The translations under genes and the position numbers were made by a program. A DNA stretch of 63,287 nt, filler included, from Asterionella formosa (lineage: Eukaryota), in the NCBI GenBank assembly GCA_002256025.1. It is 13 parts of 13 records of this genome, joined end to end, with 100 filler letters (N's around TTAATTAATTAA, not from the genome) between each part and the next. Parts side by side here need not be neighbours in the genome. Positions count along the whole stretch, not along the records: positions 34,169 to 38,943 come from NKIB01013366.1; 12 more parts are not named here. One strand, written 5' to 3'. The notes under the pieces are model-generated. The model was not told where the DNA came from. It ran no database searches and worked only from the letters and a program-made list of their open reading frames with translations. Positions 241 through 38,260 of this stretch are shown piece after piece. The number at the start of each line of letters is the position of its first letter. Position 1 is the first letter of the stretch.

Positions 241-740
241 ACCATCTTGCTTCATGTGCATATTTTTATGCATCATCACGCACATCCCGGACTTTCTACG
301 ACTAATCAGAGTTGATTTTTCAACCAAAAAGGGAGTACAAAATCAACCGTCAATGCAACCGGGTTGATTTTTTCTTTGTTGTACAATACTGTATTTTCTC
401 GTGATCTAGTACGGAAAAATACCGTCAAGGTATTTTACCATCCGCAGTAGAACGATACTTGAGGCCTACAGAAAAATACAACCTGGGTTGATTTTTACAA
501 GTAATACCATGGTACCGGTACCAGGTACCAGGTAGTTCAATGACAAGACAGCAACATCGCTCAAATTGTGGGAAAAACTAACTAATTCCCAAATGGGAAT
601 CATAATATTTCATTTATATAACTAGTCTAATAGAAATTTTTTACTTTTTTTATAATGGTTTTGTCATCCTACGTCACAGTAGATGGGTGGTTGACAGCAT
701 TTAGGATTTCCCAAAAACCGATAGCATCGTTTTTTCGTCA

Positions 741-798
741 GTTGACCAAAACCAAAACCAATCCAAAAAAAAGTTTTTGGGTTTTGGTTTGGGTCAAC
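741..798. repeat. Inverted repeat/hairpin (19-bp arms, 1 mismatch)
   Basis: gttgaccaaaaccaaaacc (741-759) pairs with ggttttggtttgggtcaac (780-798). Confidence 0.8.
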
Positions 799-1144
799 GG
801 TTAGCAACGGCCTTATTTAGTCGCTGAATGTATATATACCTTAAAAATAAGATCGACATATATGCATACACACTCTATACTCCGATTAACGATTTTATAT
901 GCTATGCATTGAATCCGTTCGTATACGGTATATATTTAGATTCTACATCGCTTTATGTGCATATACCTGGTACTACAATCGATACTCCGATCGACGACAA
1001 TGTATCATGTATGCGACAAGGCGTCTCGGCAAACATTTGAAAGTGCACCCAAGGAGCGGTACGCGTACCGGTATGTCCACTGATGATCATCTACTGGTAC
1101 CCGTCGTGAATATAGCACCGGACTGTCAGTACACCCAAGAAAAT

Positions 1145-1288
1145 GTTAAATGTTAATCCAATGTGGCCGGCGTGGGTTTGCACGACCTCGCAAACCAGGC
1201 CAATCAAACAGAGGAAGTTAAATGTTAATCCAATGTGGCCGGCGTGGGTTTGCACGACCTCGCAAACCAGGCCAATCAAACAGAGGAA
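1145..1288. repeat. Perfect 72-bp tandem duplication with an internal hairpin
   Basis: 1145-1216 is identical to 1217-1288. Each unit contains TGGCC..GGTTTGC-8nt-GCAAACC.GGCCA. Confidence 0.95.
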
Positions 1289-1406
1289 TGTAGTTCACGT
1301 TCACCAATCATATTATATATGAGGAAGCGGGTACTTACAATGGATATTTTCGGATAGGAGATTTTAGGACTAAAAATTCCGGCACACGACTGCCATTCTG
1401 GTGATC

Positions 1407-1482
1407 ACGTTTTGGCACCTAATAACTCTGATTCCGATATTTTGGCGACCGTAGAAAAGGCCGGATTTGTCGAGTTTTTGGA
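1407..1482. repeat. Dispersed repeat (inverted copy at 12535-12610)
   Basis: The core tctgattccgatattttggcgac...gaaaa.gccg...gtcga.tttttgga matches the reverse complement of 12535-12610 in contig 3. Confidence 0.75.
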
Positions 1483-1574
1483 CGACGATAGCTAAACGTT
1501 GGCTGGGTCTGACGGCGATTTAGATACATAGGTAACTTTCAAATAGCATCAGTATACCGGTATAACTTCTGGCG

Positions 1575-1690
1575 AGAAACTGCAGAAAAGGAACTTCGGT
1601 TTTTTTACTATGCCAAATAAACAGATTTCCACCGAATTTTCGAGTCTTTTTAGCATAGCTAAAAAACCGAAGTTCCTTTCTGCAGTTTCT
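1575..1690. mobile_element. Foldback/MITE-like element with ~38-bp inverted arms
   Basis: agaaactgcagaaaaggaacttcggtttttttactatgc (1575-1613) versus gcatagctaaaaaaccgaagttcctttctgcagtttct (1653-1690). Confidence 0.75.
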
Positions 1691-2159
1691 GACCAGATCC
1701 TATATACTGACGATATATTGAGTGAACCTACACCCCTACTTTGTCCGAAGACTGTATTTAAGCATATGGAAAGGGTGTCTATTGGTGAAAGCTCCGTTGA
1801 GCGTTATACATTTTTAATTTATATGTGTAAAGTACGTGTTTGATTAGTCTGACTCAATATTATTTTCTAAACCCTACCTCGAACTAGGGGTTCAAATGCA
1901 GCAACCTTAAATTATAAACTGGGAATGAACGGAAAATCAGACTACGGCTGAAAAACCGGCCTACTGTCCGAACATTTCTACGAAAAATAGCGTAGGTGTC
2001 CCGTAGATGTCTGATGATGACTGAATGAATTTGGAGCTTGCATGCAGAATTCAACGACAGATGGTAGAGACTGAAGAATTACAAAAACACGATCACAAAG
2101 AAGAAGACCTTTCATCGCACATTCGATAAAACTACCAAATCAACAAGAACAAAGCAAAC

Positions 2160-4118
2160 ATGGCGAACATCAATGCCCATCTCACACTCGCCCAGACCAA
2201 GAATAAAGCTATAATTATTACTGACCAAGGCGTACAAGCTGAGCTAATTAGGAATGGATTCTGTCCTTATCACGCAGACATTCAGCTTCGCATAATGAAT
2301 GCGTTTGGAGTTTGGAAGACTGTGCGAGCCAGCTGCCCTCATTGCGAGTGTGAACGAATGAATATACAAGGGACTCCTGCTGCAACGACTCAAATGGCTC
2401 AGTCGCCTCCTATGCCAGTAACCCAATCTCAGGCTTCAAACCAAATTCCAACCACTTCAAATTCGCCCTTAGATAAAACTTTTGCGAACTTGGCTATGAA
2501 TGACAGCAACAATCTGACAAATACTGAAGCAGATTTGCCTACTGCCACTTCAGTTTCGTCTCCGATTGCTGAAATTCTTCCGAAGATGAAGAAAGTGAAA
2601 TTTACAAATCCTGAAATTCCAGTTGAAAGTCTCTCCGATCCTATTCTGTTGGCTGAAAAGAATATTGACAACTACTGGGTGAAGATTTTTGAAGCAGGAG
2701 GTTTCACTACGATTCTGTCTGCAATGAAGAATGATCCAATGAATGCTATTGTGCAATACTATGGTTTTAGAGCACTTTCTAGCTTGGCTGAGAATCAGGA
2801 GAACCAGTTGATGATTGCTGAAGTAGGAGGTATCACTACGATTCTGTCTGCGATGATAATTCATTCCTCCAATGCTAATGTGCAAGAATATGGTTGTGTA
2901 GCACTTCAGAAGTTGGCTGAGAATGAAAACAACAAGGTGGCGATTGTTGATACAGGAGGTATCACTACGATTCTGTCTGCGATGAAGACTCATTTCTCTA
3001 ATGCTAATGTGCAAGAATATGGTTGTACAGCACTTGCCTTCTTGACTGAGAATCATGACGAAAACAAGGTGATAATATCTGAAGCAGAAGGTATTACTAC
3101 GATTCTGTCTGCGATGAAGACTCATTTCTCTAATGCTAATGTGCAAGTATATGGTTGTGCAGCACTTTGTAACTTGGCTGAGAATAATGACGAGAACAAG
3201 GTGATGATTGCGGAAGCAGGAGGTATTACTACAATTCTGTCTGCGATGAAGACTCATTTCTGTAATGCTGATGTGCAAGAATATGGTTGTGCAGCACTTG
3301 AACAGTTGGTTGTGAATAATAATAACAACGAGGTCACAAGTACTGAAGCGGGTTTGGAAATATCTGTCAAATGGTTGAAAGAAAATGAACCAAGTTTGTT
3401 TAAACTTTATCTTCCGGATAAATCAATTGGTGATGACGCCAAGGCCATTGCAGAGACTCTCAAAGTCAATACTTTCTTGACAATACCTAATCTCAGTAGG
3501 AATTACAAATCAAACATATCACTCAATCCTTCTCATGTCCCGACCCACCAAGATGTTCAATTTGTGAATGAGTATGCCAGACAAAAAGAGTGTACTTTGT
3601 CTCAGATTGCTGCTATTCATTCAGAGATGCAAATGAATGAGCAGAATGCTGACATTCAAGAAGGTCTCTTGAATCTTCAGAATGTGGCTAATGATGACAA
3701 CAATGAGGTGACGATTGCTGAAGCAGGAGGTATCACTACAATTCTGTCTGCAATGAAGTTTCATTCCTCCAATGCTAACAAGGTGGTGATTGCTGATGCA
3801 GAAGGTATCACTATGATTCTGTCTGCAATGAAGACTCATTTCTCTAATGCTAATGTGCAAGAATATGGTTGTACAGCACTTGCCTTCTTGGCTGAGAATC
3901 ATGACGAAAACAAGGTGATAATGTCTGATGCAGGAGGTATTACTACGATTCTGTCTGCAATGAAGACTCATTTCTCTAATGCTAATGTGCAAGAATATGG
4001 TTGTGCAGCACTTGAACAGTTGGTTATGAATAAAGATAACAACAAAATCACAAGTGCTGAAGCAGGTTTGGAAATATATGATCCAAGTTGGTTTGGGTTA
4101 GGGTTGTGCAGCACTTGA
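2160..4118 (+). CDS. Armadillo-repeat protein with an N-terminal Cys/His motif and an NLRC3/RI-like LRR remnant; 3' end probably decaying
   Basis: About 8 units of ~42 aa (GGITTILSAMKTHFSNANVQEYGC.AL..L); SIGDDAKAIAETLKVNT LRR-like segment; CxxH...CxxC near the N-terminus. Confidence 0.8.
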   Translation: MANINAHLTLAQTKNKAIIITDQGVQAELIRNGFCPYHADIQLRIMNAFGVWKTVRASCPHCECERMNIQGTPAATTQMAQSPPMPVTQSQASNQIPTTSNSPLDKTFANLAMNDSNNLTNTEADLPTATSVSSPIAEILPKMKKVKFTNPEIPVESLSDPILLAEKNIDNYWVKIFEAGGFTTILSAMKNDPMNAIVQYYGFRALSSLAENQENQLMIAEVGGITTILSAMIIHSSNANVQEYGCVALQKLAENENNKVAIVDTGGITTILSAMKTHFSNANVQEYGCTALAFLTENHDENKVIISEAEGITTILSAMKTHFSNANVQVYGCAALCNLAENNDENKVMIAEAGGITTILSAMKTHFCNADVQEYGCAALEQLVVNNNNNEVTSTEAGLEISVKWLKENEPSLFKLYLPDKSIGDDAKAIAETLKVNTFLTIPNLSRNYKSNISLNPSHVPTHQDVQFVNEYARQKECTLSQIAAIHSEMQMNEQNADIQEGLLNLQNVANDDNNEVTIAEAGGITTILSAMKFHSSNANKVVIADAEGITMILSAMKTHFSNANVQEYGCTALAFLAENHDENKVIMSDAGGITTILSAMKTHFSNANVQEYGCAALEQLVMNKDNNKITSAEAGLEIYDPSWFGLGLCST

Positions 4119-4788: not shown

Positions 4789-4888
4789 NNNNNNNNNNNN
4801 NNNNNNNNNNNNNNNNNNNNNNNNNNNNNNNNTTAATTAATTAANNNNNNNNNNNNNNNNNNNNNNNNNNNNNNNNNNNNNNNNNNNN
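4789..4888. other. Artificial contig-joining linker (N44-TTAATTAATTAA-N44); first of 12
   Basis: Identical 100-nt linkers at 4789-4888, 9673-9772, 14555-14654, 19433-19532, 24316-24415, 29193-29292, 34069-34168, 38944-39043, 43818-43917, 48689-48788, 53558-53657 and 58423-58522. The 12-mer has stops in all six frames. The flanking contigs are 4788 down to 4765 bp. Confidence 0.99.
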
Positions 4889-7415: not shown

Positions 7416-8372
7416 AAAAAATACAATTGCGAAAATTGAATTTCTATGTGTGTGCAGTCGTTTGCATGCCAAAAAATGGATTAGTTTATCATCGTCACTG
7501 GATAAGTCCCGCACGTAAAAAAGAACCGACTTCAATTGACACACTGCAATTCTATTTATTGCCAATGGGAATTTTGCCAAACAAGTTTTGTTCGCGTGTT
7601 TAAGTCTGAGGAATTGAAGTGTTATGGATTTATTTGTATCAAATAAGCTTTTCAATGAGTTCCATCCATGTTGGTACCAATAAGTCAAAATATACTGATT
7701 TACGATAACATTATCCTTATACCATCATACTTCCAGGAATAATTTTCAAAAGTGAAACTGGTGCCTCAATATTCCCATTCTTCAGATGCAATGTGTGCTC
7801 GATGATATCACCATCAGTGTAAATGGTTCATTTGATCCTTAATTTTTAAATGTTTAACAAGTTCATGATGTCAGTCACTTAATACAAGTATGCACATCAA
7901 GAAGACAGTGACTACCCAACCTGTGATTGGCTGCTTCTGCTTTTTCAGAAAGTCATTTTCACTCTTCTCTCTAGTTTGCTTAACCAAACTCTCATCTGAG
8001 GGGAGGGAACCAGGATCTTGTTTTCCAATATGTGGTTATAACATATATAGGCCTCTGTTAATAATTTTATAGCATATTAGTACTAGCTAGCCTCGCTTCA
8101 GGATAGTATTCATTGCGCTCCATGGGCAAGAAAACTTGGTGGGCCGATGGAGAGGTTTGGGGTGGTTACTTCCTAGTGTAGGAGTCTTGTAAAAAAAATT
8201 TGCCATCAGTGTTTTTAGCCAGATCCAAGAATAACACTTGTCTTGTGGGTGGGTCTAGAACATGGATTAATTTTTCTTCTTTGTTTGTTTCATTGTGTCT
8301 TTCCTAAAATTTGTCTGAGCATTCCCCAACTGGCTGAATGATGATGTAAATTTTTGAAATTTGGTATGTTTA

Positions 8373-8725
8373 ATAGCCCATTAGTACTCCCCTATTTCTA
8401 TAGGCAAGTATTCATTGTACTAGTACCTGCCAACAAAACCTGTGCTTTCCTACTTATATTAGCATGGGTGAGTCCATAACCACCTTTGCGAAAGGCGATT
8501 GTTGTAGCCGCAGCATTAGCTAGGGGAAACTCCGACCATCTAGGAAGGTGGTGCAAGCTGCTTGTAGGGGGCAACCCACTATTTCTTCTACACCAGGCAA
8601 GACCGTGCAGGATGGTAAGGAGTGTGGGAGTCAAACCCAACAATTGCTTCTCCAAAAAAAGCAGGAATCTAATCTCACAACCTCAGATCAAAGGCAATGT
8701 GCTGAACCACCAAGCCATTCCCTTA
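8373..8725 (-). mobile_element. tRNA-derived SINE-like element, older degenerate copy
   Basis: Colinear with 35315-35658. Minus-strand A box TGGCTTGGTGG (8707-8717); B boxes are decayed. Confidence 0.75.
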
Positions 8726-9376
8726 CATGGATTAAGCATGATTGTGTTGACGAAATTTGGTAACTCTGGTTCACTGCACTGGAGTTACCAAATTGGGTCA
8801 ACACAAACACAAAATTTTGGGTTATGCTGAGAACAACGATTTATGTTATAATACACATGATATTTATCAGAGCCCGCCCAATATATATATATGTGGTGGT
8901 TGATACTTCTCTATTTGTCAAAAAACTTCATACTTTAATATTCGTAAACTTTGACTTTTATACATACACATGCATACATCGCAAAGTGAGCTCATCATAG
9001 TACAGTAGTCATGAATAGCAGTCGAATGAGTCGACTTTGGGTGTACCAAGCAAGCTCCCATCAACCACACAATATTATTCTGCTATGTATAATGAGCCAG
9101 ACAATATAGACTATTTGGAAGACCAATAATTTGAATCCAATGATCAATGGTCATAAACCTATGATCAATAAGTGTGAGATGGACATGGGTCTATCTATGA
9201 ATGTATGTTCTGAAAAATCCAAACAGCATTGGAGAATAGTTCATTTGATTATTCAAACTGAACAAACATAATAACTAGCGAAGTAACTCATAATAAGAAT
9301 ATAGAAACAAAAGAGAAAGGAATGTCTCTATCTGTAGTCGTCTTTGTCCAACAATAGATTTATCTAGAAAAGGTAA

Positions 9377-34803: not shown

Positions 34804-35314
34804 AACAAAAAGACACAATGTGGTCTGTTTGCCTGTGAATGCCTGTCTTGTCTTCTTGCTCTACCCTCTATCTCTACAAAGGCTACTATAAATATACTCT
34901 AATCACTCTTTTAACATACCACCTTCCAAACTCCTATTGAGTTTGTCAGGTTTGTTAATTGACTCACCCTACTGTCCTCCTCCTCCTTTGTCCTTGTTGT
35001 CATTCGCTATCCTATCCTCTTTCACAACATAGGAACCATCATCAATAGTGCCGCCGCCACTCTGCAAGGGTGACACCACTACAAATGGGTGTACACAATA
35101 ATGAAGAATGCACTGCAGTATGTGAGGCTCTCATGAAGTTATATGGAACAAACAAAAAGGTGAATTAGCAGAGCTCCCCTAAAAATTTATCAATTTTTCT
35201 CCTGTCTATCCAGGCACAAGTGCATAGTTTAGTTTTAAAGTACTCTAAAATTTTATTCTCCCCCTGTATATCCCTCCAGAAAATATTGACAGTCAAGCAA
35301 CAGTATATTATTAA

Positions 35315-35658
35315 AATGATATAGCCCATTCCTACACCCCTTTTTCAAGGCAAGTATTCATTGTGTTGCCTGCCAACAATACCTGTGCTTCCCTAGTTTT
35401 GTTAGCGTAGGTGAGTTCCCCAACCACCCTTCACGAAAGATGATTGTCTTAGCCGCAGCATTAGGGGAAGGCGGCACAAGCTGCTTGTAGGGGGGCAACC
35501 CACTATTTCTTTCACGCCAGGCAAGACCATGCGGGATGGTAAGGAGTGTGGGAGTCGAACCCAACAATTGCTTCTCAAAAAGATTGCGGGAATCGAACCT
35601 CACAACCTCAGATCAAAGGCAACGTGCTCAACCAACTACCATAAGCCATTCTTCCTTA
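35315..35658 (-). mobile_element. tRNA-derived SINE-like element flanked by a 16-bp target-site duplication
   Basis: aacagtatattattaa at 35299-35314 and 35659-35674. Minus-strand head GGAAGAATGGCTT..TTGG..GAGC; B boxes GGTTCGATTCCC (35588-35599) and GGGTTCGACTCCC (35550-35562). A second copy is at 8373-8725. Confidence 0.8.
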
Positions 35659-36672
35659 AACAGTATATTATTAATATGTAATATTAAAATAAATTCCCCA
35701 TCATGAACCATAGCATCATCAATCATATTGTTGCCTCAGGAGTTACCGCTTGATGACAGTGATGATTTTGATGTTGTAAATGACAATAACAGCACCAGTG
35801 TTCTGGATTTCCTCTTCCTCTGTCATCTAGCTGAAGGAGCTGAACAAGAAGAATCATCCAAAAGACAAAGACAAAAGCACAAATGGCACCATGAAAACAA
35901 CTCATCCGAGAGACAAAGATGAAGGCACAATTGGCAGCAGCCACCATGAACAAATCTCCTGGTAATCACATGTCGAAAAGCTTAATCACAAGATTGCTTT
36001 CTAAAAAACATAAAGAATGTCACACAGAGCATTTAGAAAGCTGACCTCCATAGCTACTGGCGAACCCATAACCCGAGCAACAACAATGCAAACTTGACAC
36101 CTTGCTTCGGAAAGGGGGAGCATTGGAAGATATGATGTACATACAAATTGCAGGACCGGTACCAGGTACCTGGTACTGGTACCAGTAAAAAACTGCCATG
36201 ACCCATTGAGAATATTTTTGAACTGCTGTGACCCATTGAACACAGAATAACACGTTTTGCTGTCAAAACTTAAGTAAATGTAAGTTCTGAGAGTTCTGGC
36301 TCCTTCTCGAGCATGTAGGCTAGTCAGCTATGTATTTTGTTTGAGATTTGGAGTCAATTGTTCATCTCAATAGATTGCCAGAAATAGTGAATCGACCAAA
36401 AAATATAGAGAACACGGATTAGGGTAAGTTTGGAGTTCTCATTGTCATATAATATACAACGATATATACAAATATTTCGACATTGATTTAATTAGTGTCT
36501 GAACGTTAACCACATTTATAGCAATAAAGATTTTGTTTTGGTATTGAATTGTACAGAGATGGCAAATGATATGGGCGCGCCTATATCTGATTGAGGATTT
36601 TGATATATACGTATCTGTCAGTCCACAAAACATGAAAAACAGTAAACAGCTATCACGCAAACCAGCACCACC

Positions 36673-38260
36673 ATGCCGAAGTCAAGAAAAAGTCGATCTT
36701 CCAGCATCAAGAAGGAGACAGAAGCACTTCACTATGCTCAGGTCGTTATTCAACGCAACATGCTTGGCATTGTTACAGAATTTGAAGCAATCAAGGCGAA
36801 CAATAATGGAAAGCTCCAATACGGAGCCATTACCAACATGGTGAAGGCTCAGAAGGTATACTTGCCTTGGCTTACCAAAAACAAAGTCGACTACTGGTTA
36901 AGAAAGGCAGGTGCTAGTGCTTTCCCCAACATGGGTATACTATCAGGAGATTCTCAGGCAGATATGCGCTCATTTTACTATTCAAGTAATAGAACATCTA
37001 CTTTGACAAGAGAAGAGGATGACAACATGACAGGAGTAGATGATAATATCAATGCTATTAATAGTATTGAATTATTTTCTACAACTATGACTACTGCTGC
37101 AGTTAGTGTTCCTGCAGTCATTGTCCCCATGACCACCATACTTACTGGAGGCCGGCCAAAGGGAACCGCTCAAATGGCATCAGCATCGATGCAAAGAAAT
37201 ATCGAAGAATGCATTGTCCAGTCGGCCACAGAATACATGAGGGTTAGAGAAGAACTGCAGCAAAAGAACAAGAAAGCAAGTAGATTCACACTTGCCTGCA
37301 TAATTGGGGCGAGAAAAAAGGCGCTTGGTATTCCTCCTGGAGTTGAAACAAATATAGAAACAGTGAGATCTCGGGCAAAACGCAAAAAACCCCAGGGAAA
37401 AAACGAAGCTTCAATGTCACCAATGCTCGAAGTTGAGCTACCGGTATACATTATTGTGCTGATTGAACAACTCTCCAAAATGCGATTCCCAATTACATGC
37501 TGTCAGCAGGGACTGGAACTTGCTAACTCACTTGTGTCTGGTAAATCCATCATGGAAAATATTGTGCTGTGGAGGCAGAAACATTGCATTTCATTCAGAG
37601 AGGATCCAACATTGTCTAAACCACTGGGATCAGGGTACTGGAAGGGAATCCATGAGTCGCAATTGGCTCCATGTCAAGGCAGAGAAAGGTGTCAAATTCG
37701 ATGGGAAGCGTGCTGACTGGTGCACATTAAGGAACTTTGAGCAGATGTATAGAGATGTGTATAAAGAAATGGCCAAGATGGGTATTGCGGAAAAGCTGGA
37801 TGAAGAAGTGTGGTTGAATAAATCAGGAGATGTTGTTGCAAATGAGGAAGGAGCCCTGGGAATGAAAACAAAGTACATTTTGAAGTATCCCAACAAACTC
37901 ATATTTGTTGATGAAGTTGGAAGTAACACCAGTCAGGCAAAAGATGGACAGAAGGGGGGTGAGAAAGTGTTATGTATTGGAACAGCGGCAAGACCACAAC
38001 AACGAAGTGCTGTGAAGTATGCGCATTTTACAGTCTTGGGATTTACAGCTGCCGAAGGAACTCCAGTGATGTGTGCTATAATATTCGCTGCCAAAGAGCT
38101 TGAACTTAGTTGGGTACAGGGGCTTAACCCGTTTGTGGAATGGCATGGCAATGAGGACGACTTCAACCTAAACACTTGCAAAGGAAAGCGATATCCTCAG
38201 GGACCTGTATGTGTGTTAAATGGAAAGCATGTGCCCACTTTGTAATGTTGTTCGGAATCA
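36673..38260 (+). mobile_element. Pogo/Tc1-like DDE transposase pseudogene (frameshift ~37650, stop 38243, 3'-truncated)
   Basis: GGRPKG; GYWKG/MSRN; KFDGKRADWCT..NFEQMY; IFVDEVGSNTSQAKDG; HFTVLGFTAAEGTPVMCAIIF. Confidence 0.8.

Follow-up and report, generated by a model that had tools for sequence, protein, structure and literature searches.

A probable tRNA-derived short interspersed element family, with a duplicated T-arm, in the freshwater diatom Asterionella formosa

The locus

The DNA considered here, referred to below as the window, is a stretch of 63,287 nucleotides, filler included, from the genome of Asterionella formosa (GenBank assembly GCA_002256025.1). It consists of 13 separate contigs of about 4.77 kb each, which are arranged in descending length and joined by N44, TTAATTAATTAA and N44. 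The first joint of the window lies at 4789-4888 and 11 more follow downstream; features are not readable across the joints. The subject of this report is a repeated, non-coding element with a head resembling a transfer RNA (tRNA), two copies of which lie in the window, copy 1 in the contig at 34169-38943 (NKIB01013366.1) and copy 2 in the contig at 4889-9672. An earlier reading of this DNA, made without database searches (the sequence-only reading), had described copy 1 as a tRNA-derived short interspersed nuclear element (SINE), and much of what follows bears on that description. The coordinates of the features are collected in Table 1.

The host was taken by the sequence-only reading to be a diatom, and the coding content of the window bears this out. 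The named matches of a ThiD/ThiE fusion protein encoded in the window (Nitzschia, Cylindrotheca, Pseudo-nitzschia, Attheya, Bacillariaceae and Thalassiosira) are all diatoms, with 58-64% identity, and plastid-related functions are also encoded. The contig carrying copy 1 is present in 20 of the 24 public runs listed for it, from 14 studies; these runs are freshwater, lake and 'algae' metagenomes, together with four runs of one named organism that is related to the host. Logan contigs from four public runs (X1, X2, X6 and X15) were placed on positions 34900-36100 at a likeness of at least 80%, and the depths and contig ends given below refer to these placements.

Table 1. Features of the two copies of the element in the window
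Feature	Position	Strand	Remarks
Target-site duplication, left copy	35299-35314		exact 16-mer aacagtatattattaa
SINE copy 1	35315-35658	minus (sense)	344 bp, non-coding, between the 16-mers
Unique body and tail	35315-35536	minus	body about 230 nt; family tail ends in a short T-run
ACCA	35537-35540	minus	immediately follows second acceptor-like strand; present in 3 of 4 copies
27-nt T-arm and acceptor-strand duplicate, second copy	35541-35567	minus	78% identity to partner
B box 2	35551-35561	minus	exact GGTTCGACTCC
tRNA-like module 1	35575-35658	minus	acceptor-like 5' end, disrupted A box, D arm, decayed anticodon arm, T-arm, T-run
Internal T-run	35577-35581	minus	T5 in copy 1; T7 in most family copies
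27-nt duplicate, partner (first copy)	35579-35605	minus	spacing 38
B box 1	35589-35599	minus	exact GGTTCGATTCC
Target-site duplication, right copy	35659-35674		exact 16-mer aacagtatattattaa
11-bp direct repeat, tail side of copy 2	8260-8270		exact
Extra 86 nt after copy 2 tail	8271-8356	minus	A-rich end, inside the 11-bp repeat; not in other copies
SINE copy 2	8357-8724	minus	368 bp, older; one mismatch in the A box (8707-8717); B boxes 1 and 2 decayed; T7
11-bp direct repeat, head side of copy 2	8725-8735		exact, flush with head

Copy 1 and its boundaries

The exact 16-bp repeat directly adjoins copy 1 at either end. In 100 Markov-1 simulations of the window, exact direct 16-mer repeats spaced 50-600 bp apart did not arise. 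The weight of the observation lies in the fact that the 16-mer abuts both ends of a repeated family, since the window holds many other local repeats. The stop-to-stop frames of 83 and 88 amino acids that run across the unit gave no Pfam match at E<=1. Terminal inverted repeats are absent from 35250-35720, where the sole inverted repeat found is internal (35359-35372 and 35518-35531).

The 344-bp unit and its exact 16-bp flanking repeat, as described in the sequence-only reading, are thus confirmed; that length is correct for copy 1 but is not the length of the family, which is about 365-370 bp, copy 1 being a deleted variant (units range from about 345 to 370 bp among the copies). Compared with the other copies and with the consensus of the loose contig ends, copy 1 has gained 6 nt in the region of the A box and D loop and lost about 20 nt internally, near 35420-35466, and 9 nt in the tail, and loose contig ends at 35320, 35420, 35466 and 35634 mark the places where it departs from the family. 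The bin 35433-35473 keeps about 40% of the neighbouring depth, from which it appears that the internally deleted form may be common to a sizeable minority of copies. X2 contigs with no differences bridge both junctions of the insertion.

A highly repeated family with shared ends

The sequence-only reading had supposed, from two copies in the window, that the element belongs to a high-copy family, and in all four runs the unit proved to be highly repeated and sharply bounded (Table 2). Its summed depth is about 40 to 3000 times that of single-copy flanks. Summed depth takes in other organisms and is not a copy number, so that it is to be read as an order of magnitude only; on that footing it corresponds to tens of copy equivalents in the related organism and to hundreds to a few thousand in the other runs. 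The presence of two copies in about 62 kb fits this range, and the window holds no third copy.

Table 2. Summed depth of the unit in contigs of four public runs
Run	Contigs placed	Unit depth (bins 35310-35637)	Depth of single-copy contigs
X1	10,825	0.31-1.73 million	about 470-930 (bridging and flank contigs)
X2	1,714	12,000-121,000	94-105
X6	919	570-3,900	5.5-5.8
X15	164	48-266	about 3

Depth drops steeply at 35310 and after 35637. At the head end, the contigs that leave copy 1 at 35634 or 35651 (116 in X1 and 44 in X2) agree on the terminal letters of the element, beyond which they turn AT-rich and discordant. At the tail end, the contigs entering at 35320 (57 in X1 and 15 in X6) agree on 16 more letters, which are partly missing from copy 1, and these letters are preceded on the plus strand by A-rich, discordant sequence. 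Because the loose ends first agree and then diverge, both ends of the element are sharp and common to the copies while the flanks are specific to each copy. Several contigs show internal swaps within the body, an example being 36 letters between 35420 and 35518 (in X1, X2 and X6), which suggests that subfamilies differ in their middle segments.

A 16-mer scan of metagenome contigs yielded 110 loci, two of which (L063 and L066) were found by blastn to carry the element; the other 108 were rejected as chance matches and contain no tRNA. Scanning with a 17-mer produced 54 loci in prokaryote genomes and 11 in viral contigs, none of them a further copy, so that two of 175 loci overall carry the element. 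L066 holds a full copy, matched over 363 bp (529-891), with a divergent 5' part. L063 holds the head and half of the body, its contig starting inside the element; positions 1-27, the stretch beside the SINE, are presumably a sequencing adapter from a transposase library, and the contig end looks like an assembly artefact. The two window copies, L063 and L066 align colinearly, with pairwise identities of 83-94% over the head and first half and of 82-89% over the remainder. The comparisons suggest that L063 is nearest to the consensus implied by the loose ends.

Copy 2 and its surroundings

A colinear second copy had been placed at 8373-8725 by the sequence-only reading. This stands, the identity of copies 1 and 2 being 78.4% over 365 columns (35321-35658 against 8373-8725), and comparison with the other copies sets the part homologous to the family at 8357-8724. 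The 11-bp repeat around copy 2 is the sole direct repeat of at least 8 nt between the 300 nt on either side. Both duplications, of 16 and 11 bp, end in ATTAA beside the tail, and the tail-side flanks of the family are A-rich on the plus strand.

The neighbourhood of copy 2 has further peculiarities. Another 11-mer, TACCAAATTTC, is found both at the tail end of copy 2 and 38 nt upstream of its head. A foldback of about 100 nt (8739-8830) lies directly upstream of the head; its segment 8739-8809 is self-inverted, with 81.7% identity over 71 nt, and the foldback resembles a miniature inverted-repeat transposable element (MITE) without a clear duplication. Positions 8832-8863, about 107 nt upstream of the head, match positions 231-262 of L063 with 90.6% identity over 32 nt (by eye the likeness extends over about 70 nt with gaps), and the counterpart in L063 directly abuts the head. 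The shared flank motif may reflect an orthologous or duplicated locus, or a repeated sequence that is a preferred target. No single history could be constructed that explains the second 11-mer, the foldback, the shared flank motif and the 11-bp repeat together.

The tRNA-like head

Module 1, about 80 nt in length, is ordered and spaced like a tRNA gene. The whole window contains two exact matches to the B box pattern GGTTCGANTCC, both of them in copy 1 and 38 nt apart, where 0.10 would be expected per window and two or more occurred in 1 of 100 shuffles. The B box of the head and the second T-arm/B-box 38 nt further on, both of which had been pointed out from the sequence, are therefore well founded. 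The A box had also been pointed out, with a mixed outcome: it is exact (TGGCTTAGTGG) in L063 and in the consensus of the loose ends at 35634, eight to nine letters from the 5' end, but copy 1 itself has no match to the pattern TRGCNNAGTGG within one mismatch. Copy 2 matches that pattern with one mismatch. In L063 and the consensus, the A box is followed by a D stem of 3-4 bp, a seven-letter loop, a five-letter variable region and an exact B box. The seven-letter anticodon-like loop reads C-U-UUG-A-U or C-C-UUU-G-A depending on the register, and, on inspection by eye, the parent isotype may have been Lys-UUU-like or Gln-UUG-like. All of the Rfam tRNA model (1-71) aligns with module 1 of L063 in the expected register.

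The internal T-run, the duplicated T-arm and the body

A T-run lies between the two B boxes. Copy 1 has T5 and L066 has T4; copy 2 and L063 both have T7. At position 35582 in X1, 783,642 of a summed depth of 930,971 (about 84%) carries the base that makes the run T7, and the oddity noted earlier in the two window copies is thus real and stronger than had been stated. In copy 1, the sole copy with a perfect duplication, the run is a T5 interrupted by C, which would fit shorter T-runs in the active sources.

The second B box is part of a tandem duplicate, 27 nt long, that comprises the T-arm and the 3' strand of the acceptor and not a second whole tRNA. On reading the sequences, the second acceptor-like strand pairs with the first five letters of the element better than does that of the first copy. 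The two T-arm copies can pair around the T-run, with a minimum free energy of -39.1 compared with -31.7 +/- 3.5 for shuffles (z -2.1; 3 of 200 shuffles were as good). Since none of the 34 predicted pairs shows compensatory changes among the four sequences, a conserved structure is without support.

After the second T-arm comes a unique body of the length given by the sequence-only reading. The family tail ends in TTT(T). Copy 2 aside, nothing in the window resembles the body or tail, and this includes the retrotransposon-like stretches of the window.

Interpretation and alternatives

The element is best explained as a high-copy family of non-autonomous retroposons, namely a tRNA-derived SINE, in a freshwater diatom, an interpretation to which a probability of roughly 0.8 may be given. 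The SINE interpretation is supported by the copy number, the motifs for RNA polymerase III (Pol III), the lack of terminal inverted repeats and the diatom host. Transcription by Pol III would start from the A and B boxes of the head. A minority of the transcripts would read past the internal T-run and end at the T-run of the tail. An endonuclease/reverse transcriptase encoded by a long interspersed nuclear element (LINE) would then nick AT-rich DNA after an A-rich stretch and copy the RNA in place (target-primed reverse transcription), leaving duplications of variable length such as those of 16 and 11 bp. That the nick would follow an A-rich stretch is suggested by the ATTAA with which both duplications end beside the tail. 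The architecture of the head could have arisen most simply through partial duplication of the T-arm within the element, or through fusion of a tRNA-like promoter module upstream of an older element that started with the CCA-carrying 3' end of a tRNA. Passage of the T7 could be due to frequent read-through or to shorter runs in the active sources, or the full-length RNA might be made in some other way.

Several observations weigh against this interpretation. Some of them concern the head. ARAGORN found no tRNA in the window, in L063 and L066 or in any of the 110 first loci, and Rfam gave no tRNA match at E<=10 on copy 1 (35000-36000). The alignment of the Rfam tRNA model with L063 scores 13.6 bits compared with a gathering threshold of 29 (E 1.5 over 4227 families), and a tRNA-Sec model covering both modules of L063 and L066 scores 17.6 and 19.2 bits compared with a gathering threshold of 47. 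Matches to the A-box pattern with one mismatch are not rare in the window (28, compared with 18.6 expected), and because they are common such a match carries no weight alone. With detector scores below gathering or nil, the tRNA-like head proposed by the sequence-only reading holds for motifs and register but not for detection by these programs; the head is a putative decayed tRNA derivative by its layout and motifs and not by score. A T7 is expected to stop Pol III after about 85 nt.

Other points concern the insertion and the tail. Only one of the three copies with both ends, a small number, has a flush, clean duplication; the 11-bp repeat of copy 2 lies 86 nt beyond the family tail, and L066 has no flanking direct repeat of at least 8 bp. 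Reads across an empty site of copy 1 had been proposed as a check on the insertion. Two joints are present among the contigs placed at 80% likeness. The first runs from 35308 to 35749, has a shorter side of 44 letters and is represented at single-copy depth by a single contig in each of X1, X2 and X6; the second runs from 35311 to 35829 (shorter side 24 letters). Neither is the precise 360-bp excision form, so that no clean empty site is seen among them. On the bolder form of the interpretation given below, the insertion 35299-35674 may even be hemizygous, for which the joint from 35308 to 35749 is not counted as evidence. No poly(A) or simple-repeat tail occurs in the family consensus or copies, and Pfam revealed no LINE domain in the 39 frames scanned of the window's 74 frames of at least 110 amino acids. 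Finally, in each of the four runs the summed depth of the head is 1.3-1.8 times that of the body, which is the opposite of what would be expected from 5' truncation. The excess could mean head-only copies, sister families with the same head or better conservation of the head.

It is possible, though improbable, that the element is a retroposon in which the tRNA-like parts are relics of its origin and not a working promoter. The ACCA would then be the trace of a mature tRNA that had been reverse-transcribed; Pol II, or transcription running on from a neighbouring gene, would supply the full-length RNA, and Pol III would make only the 85-nt head. This proposal draws on the 'strong-stop DNA' model, in which a primer tRNA with its CCA is joined to the complement of the U5-R region of a long terminal repeat (LTR). 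The retention of ACCA after the second acceptor-like strand in three of the four copies speaks for a relic origin, as does the T7 between the modules in most copies, and the plus strand of the second module amounts to about 26 nt complementary to a tRNA 3' end, starting with TGG. Many head-only copies would fit the excess of head depth, and the 86 extra 3' nt of copy 2, with their A-rich end, are like a longer, possibly polyadenylated transcript. However, the family consensus retains the A and B boxes in exact form, which suggests selection in the source copies. Moreover, the body is similar to nothing else in the window, retrotransposon-like stretches included, and the ACCA is not followed by the TG start expected of an LTR end.

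It is very unlikely that the element is another kind of dispersed repeat (a derivative of a DNA transposon, a Helitron fragment, a solo LTR or a composite piece) with incidental tRNA motifs, its 16-bp repeat having arisen by insertion into locally duplicated AT-rich sequence. Such an origin could account for there being a single clean duplication, and the flanks of copy 1 are mildly repeated themselves (bins 35187-35309); the flank motif shared by L063 and copy 2 also hints at a larger repeated context for some copies. Against it, both ends are common to dozens to more than 100 contigs, which then run into unrelated AT-rich sequence, and two exact B boxes are very unlikely by chance. The repeats here, of 16 and 11 bp, are unequal and longer than the fixed duplications that cut-and-paste transposons generally make; with the lack of terminal inverted repeats in 35250-35720, a MITE or other cut-and-paste derivative was rejected. 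The ends are neither TG..CA nor Helitron-like by the usual hallmarks, and a solo LTR and a Helitron were rejected accordingly. A tandem satellite was dismissed as the copies are dispersed, and a real tRNA gene as the stems are decayed.

Returning to the SINE interpretation, a bolder form of it may be put forward tentatively, with doubt prevailing: the family could be an active or recently active diatom SINE that breaks two expectations. One would be read-through, in that a T7 between the B boxes of the source copies would oblige diatom Pol III to read through it for full-length RNA, possibly aided by the hairpin of about 30 bp that the two T-arm copies can form. The other would be priming, in that the RNA would end in the U-tract of its own terminator and be primed at a nick after an A-rich stretch. 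If true, U-tract priming would be the mirror image of the poly(A)/T-rich priming of L1.

Sequence beside copy 1

Three stretches near copy 1, unrelated to the SINE, are also highly repeated: 34900-35022, 35802-35842 and 35966-36047, with summed depths in X1 of up to 262,000, 85,000 and 153,000, respectively. Positions 35746-35833 on the plus strand gave weak matches to C/D-box small nucleolar RNAs (SNORD11B with 24.6 bits and E 0.12, SNORD70 and Z107). All of these score well short of the gathering threshold. The D box is imperfect and the segment overlaps a repeated stretch; it is probably not a small nucleolar RNA. Just downstream of copy 1, at 36646-38242 on the plus strand, are two long overlapping frames of 356 and 260 amino acids without a Pfam match; they may belong to a single gene interrupted by a frameshift or intron, or encode a transposon protein.

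Significance and comparison with known systems

The family would provide a concrete retroposon for the annotation of diatom genomes, as well as a handle on which LINE is active in diatoms and a natural test of Pol III termination in the diatom lineage. Insertions could serve as presence/absence markers for freshwater diatom populations, because runs from 14 studies, and the related named species, contain the family.

The likeness to tRNA-derived SINEs, the SINE2/tRNA class as SINEBase defines it, extends to the short, non-coding unit with A and B boxes at the 5' end in tRNA register, the unique body, the high copy number and dispersed copies, and the apparently variable duplications in AT-rich DNA. 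Unlike tRNA-derived SINEs generally, the diatom family ends in a short T-run in place of an A-rich or simple-repeat tail, and it has an internal T7 and a duplicated T-arm and acceptor strand followed by ACCA.

Some of these departures have counterparts elsewhere. The Twin SINE of Culex has two tRNA-related regions, and in squid and salmonid SINEs a CCA follows the tRNA part. The Asterionella family resembles these in having more than one tRNA-like segment at the 5' end and a CCA directly after an acceptor-like strand; it differs in that its second segment, the 27-nt duplicate, is confined to a T-arm with its acceptor strand, and nothing resembling U5 was found. Plant SINEs with T-rich 3' ends include the Au SINE and p-SINE1. 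By description, the diatom tail is like theirs in ending in a short T-run and not in poly(A), whereas the host group and the body are different.

Among diatoms, the table of repeats for P. tricornutum (Table 2 of PMC5859163) has an entry 'Putative SINE' with 13 copies and 1,454 bp, and SINEs are labelled in C. cryptica and S. costatum, with roles given as 'poorly understood' (PMC7466962; PMC8147415). The Asterionella family shares the host group and the class label with these putative SINEs. In the portions of those sources that are available, the diatom SINEs are pipeline calls without a described structure; unlike them, the Asterionella family is defined in its ends and motifs and numbers hundreds to thousands of copy equivalents. 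The literature searched, which is part of the whole, yielded no diatom SINE with a described structure. On the interpretation favoured here, the Asterionella element is a real tRNA-derived SINE family, unusual in its duplicated T-arm, its internal terminator-like run, its ACCA and its T-ended tail.

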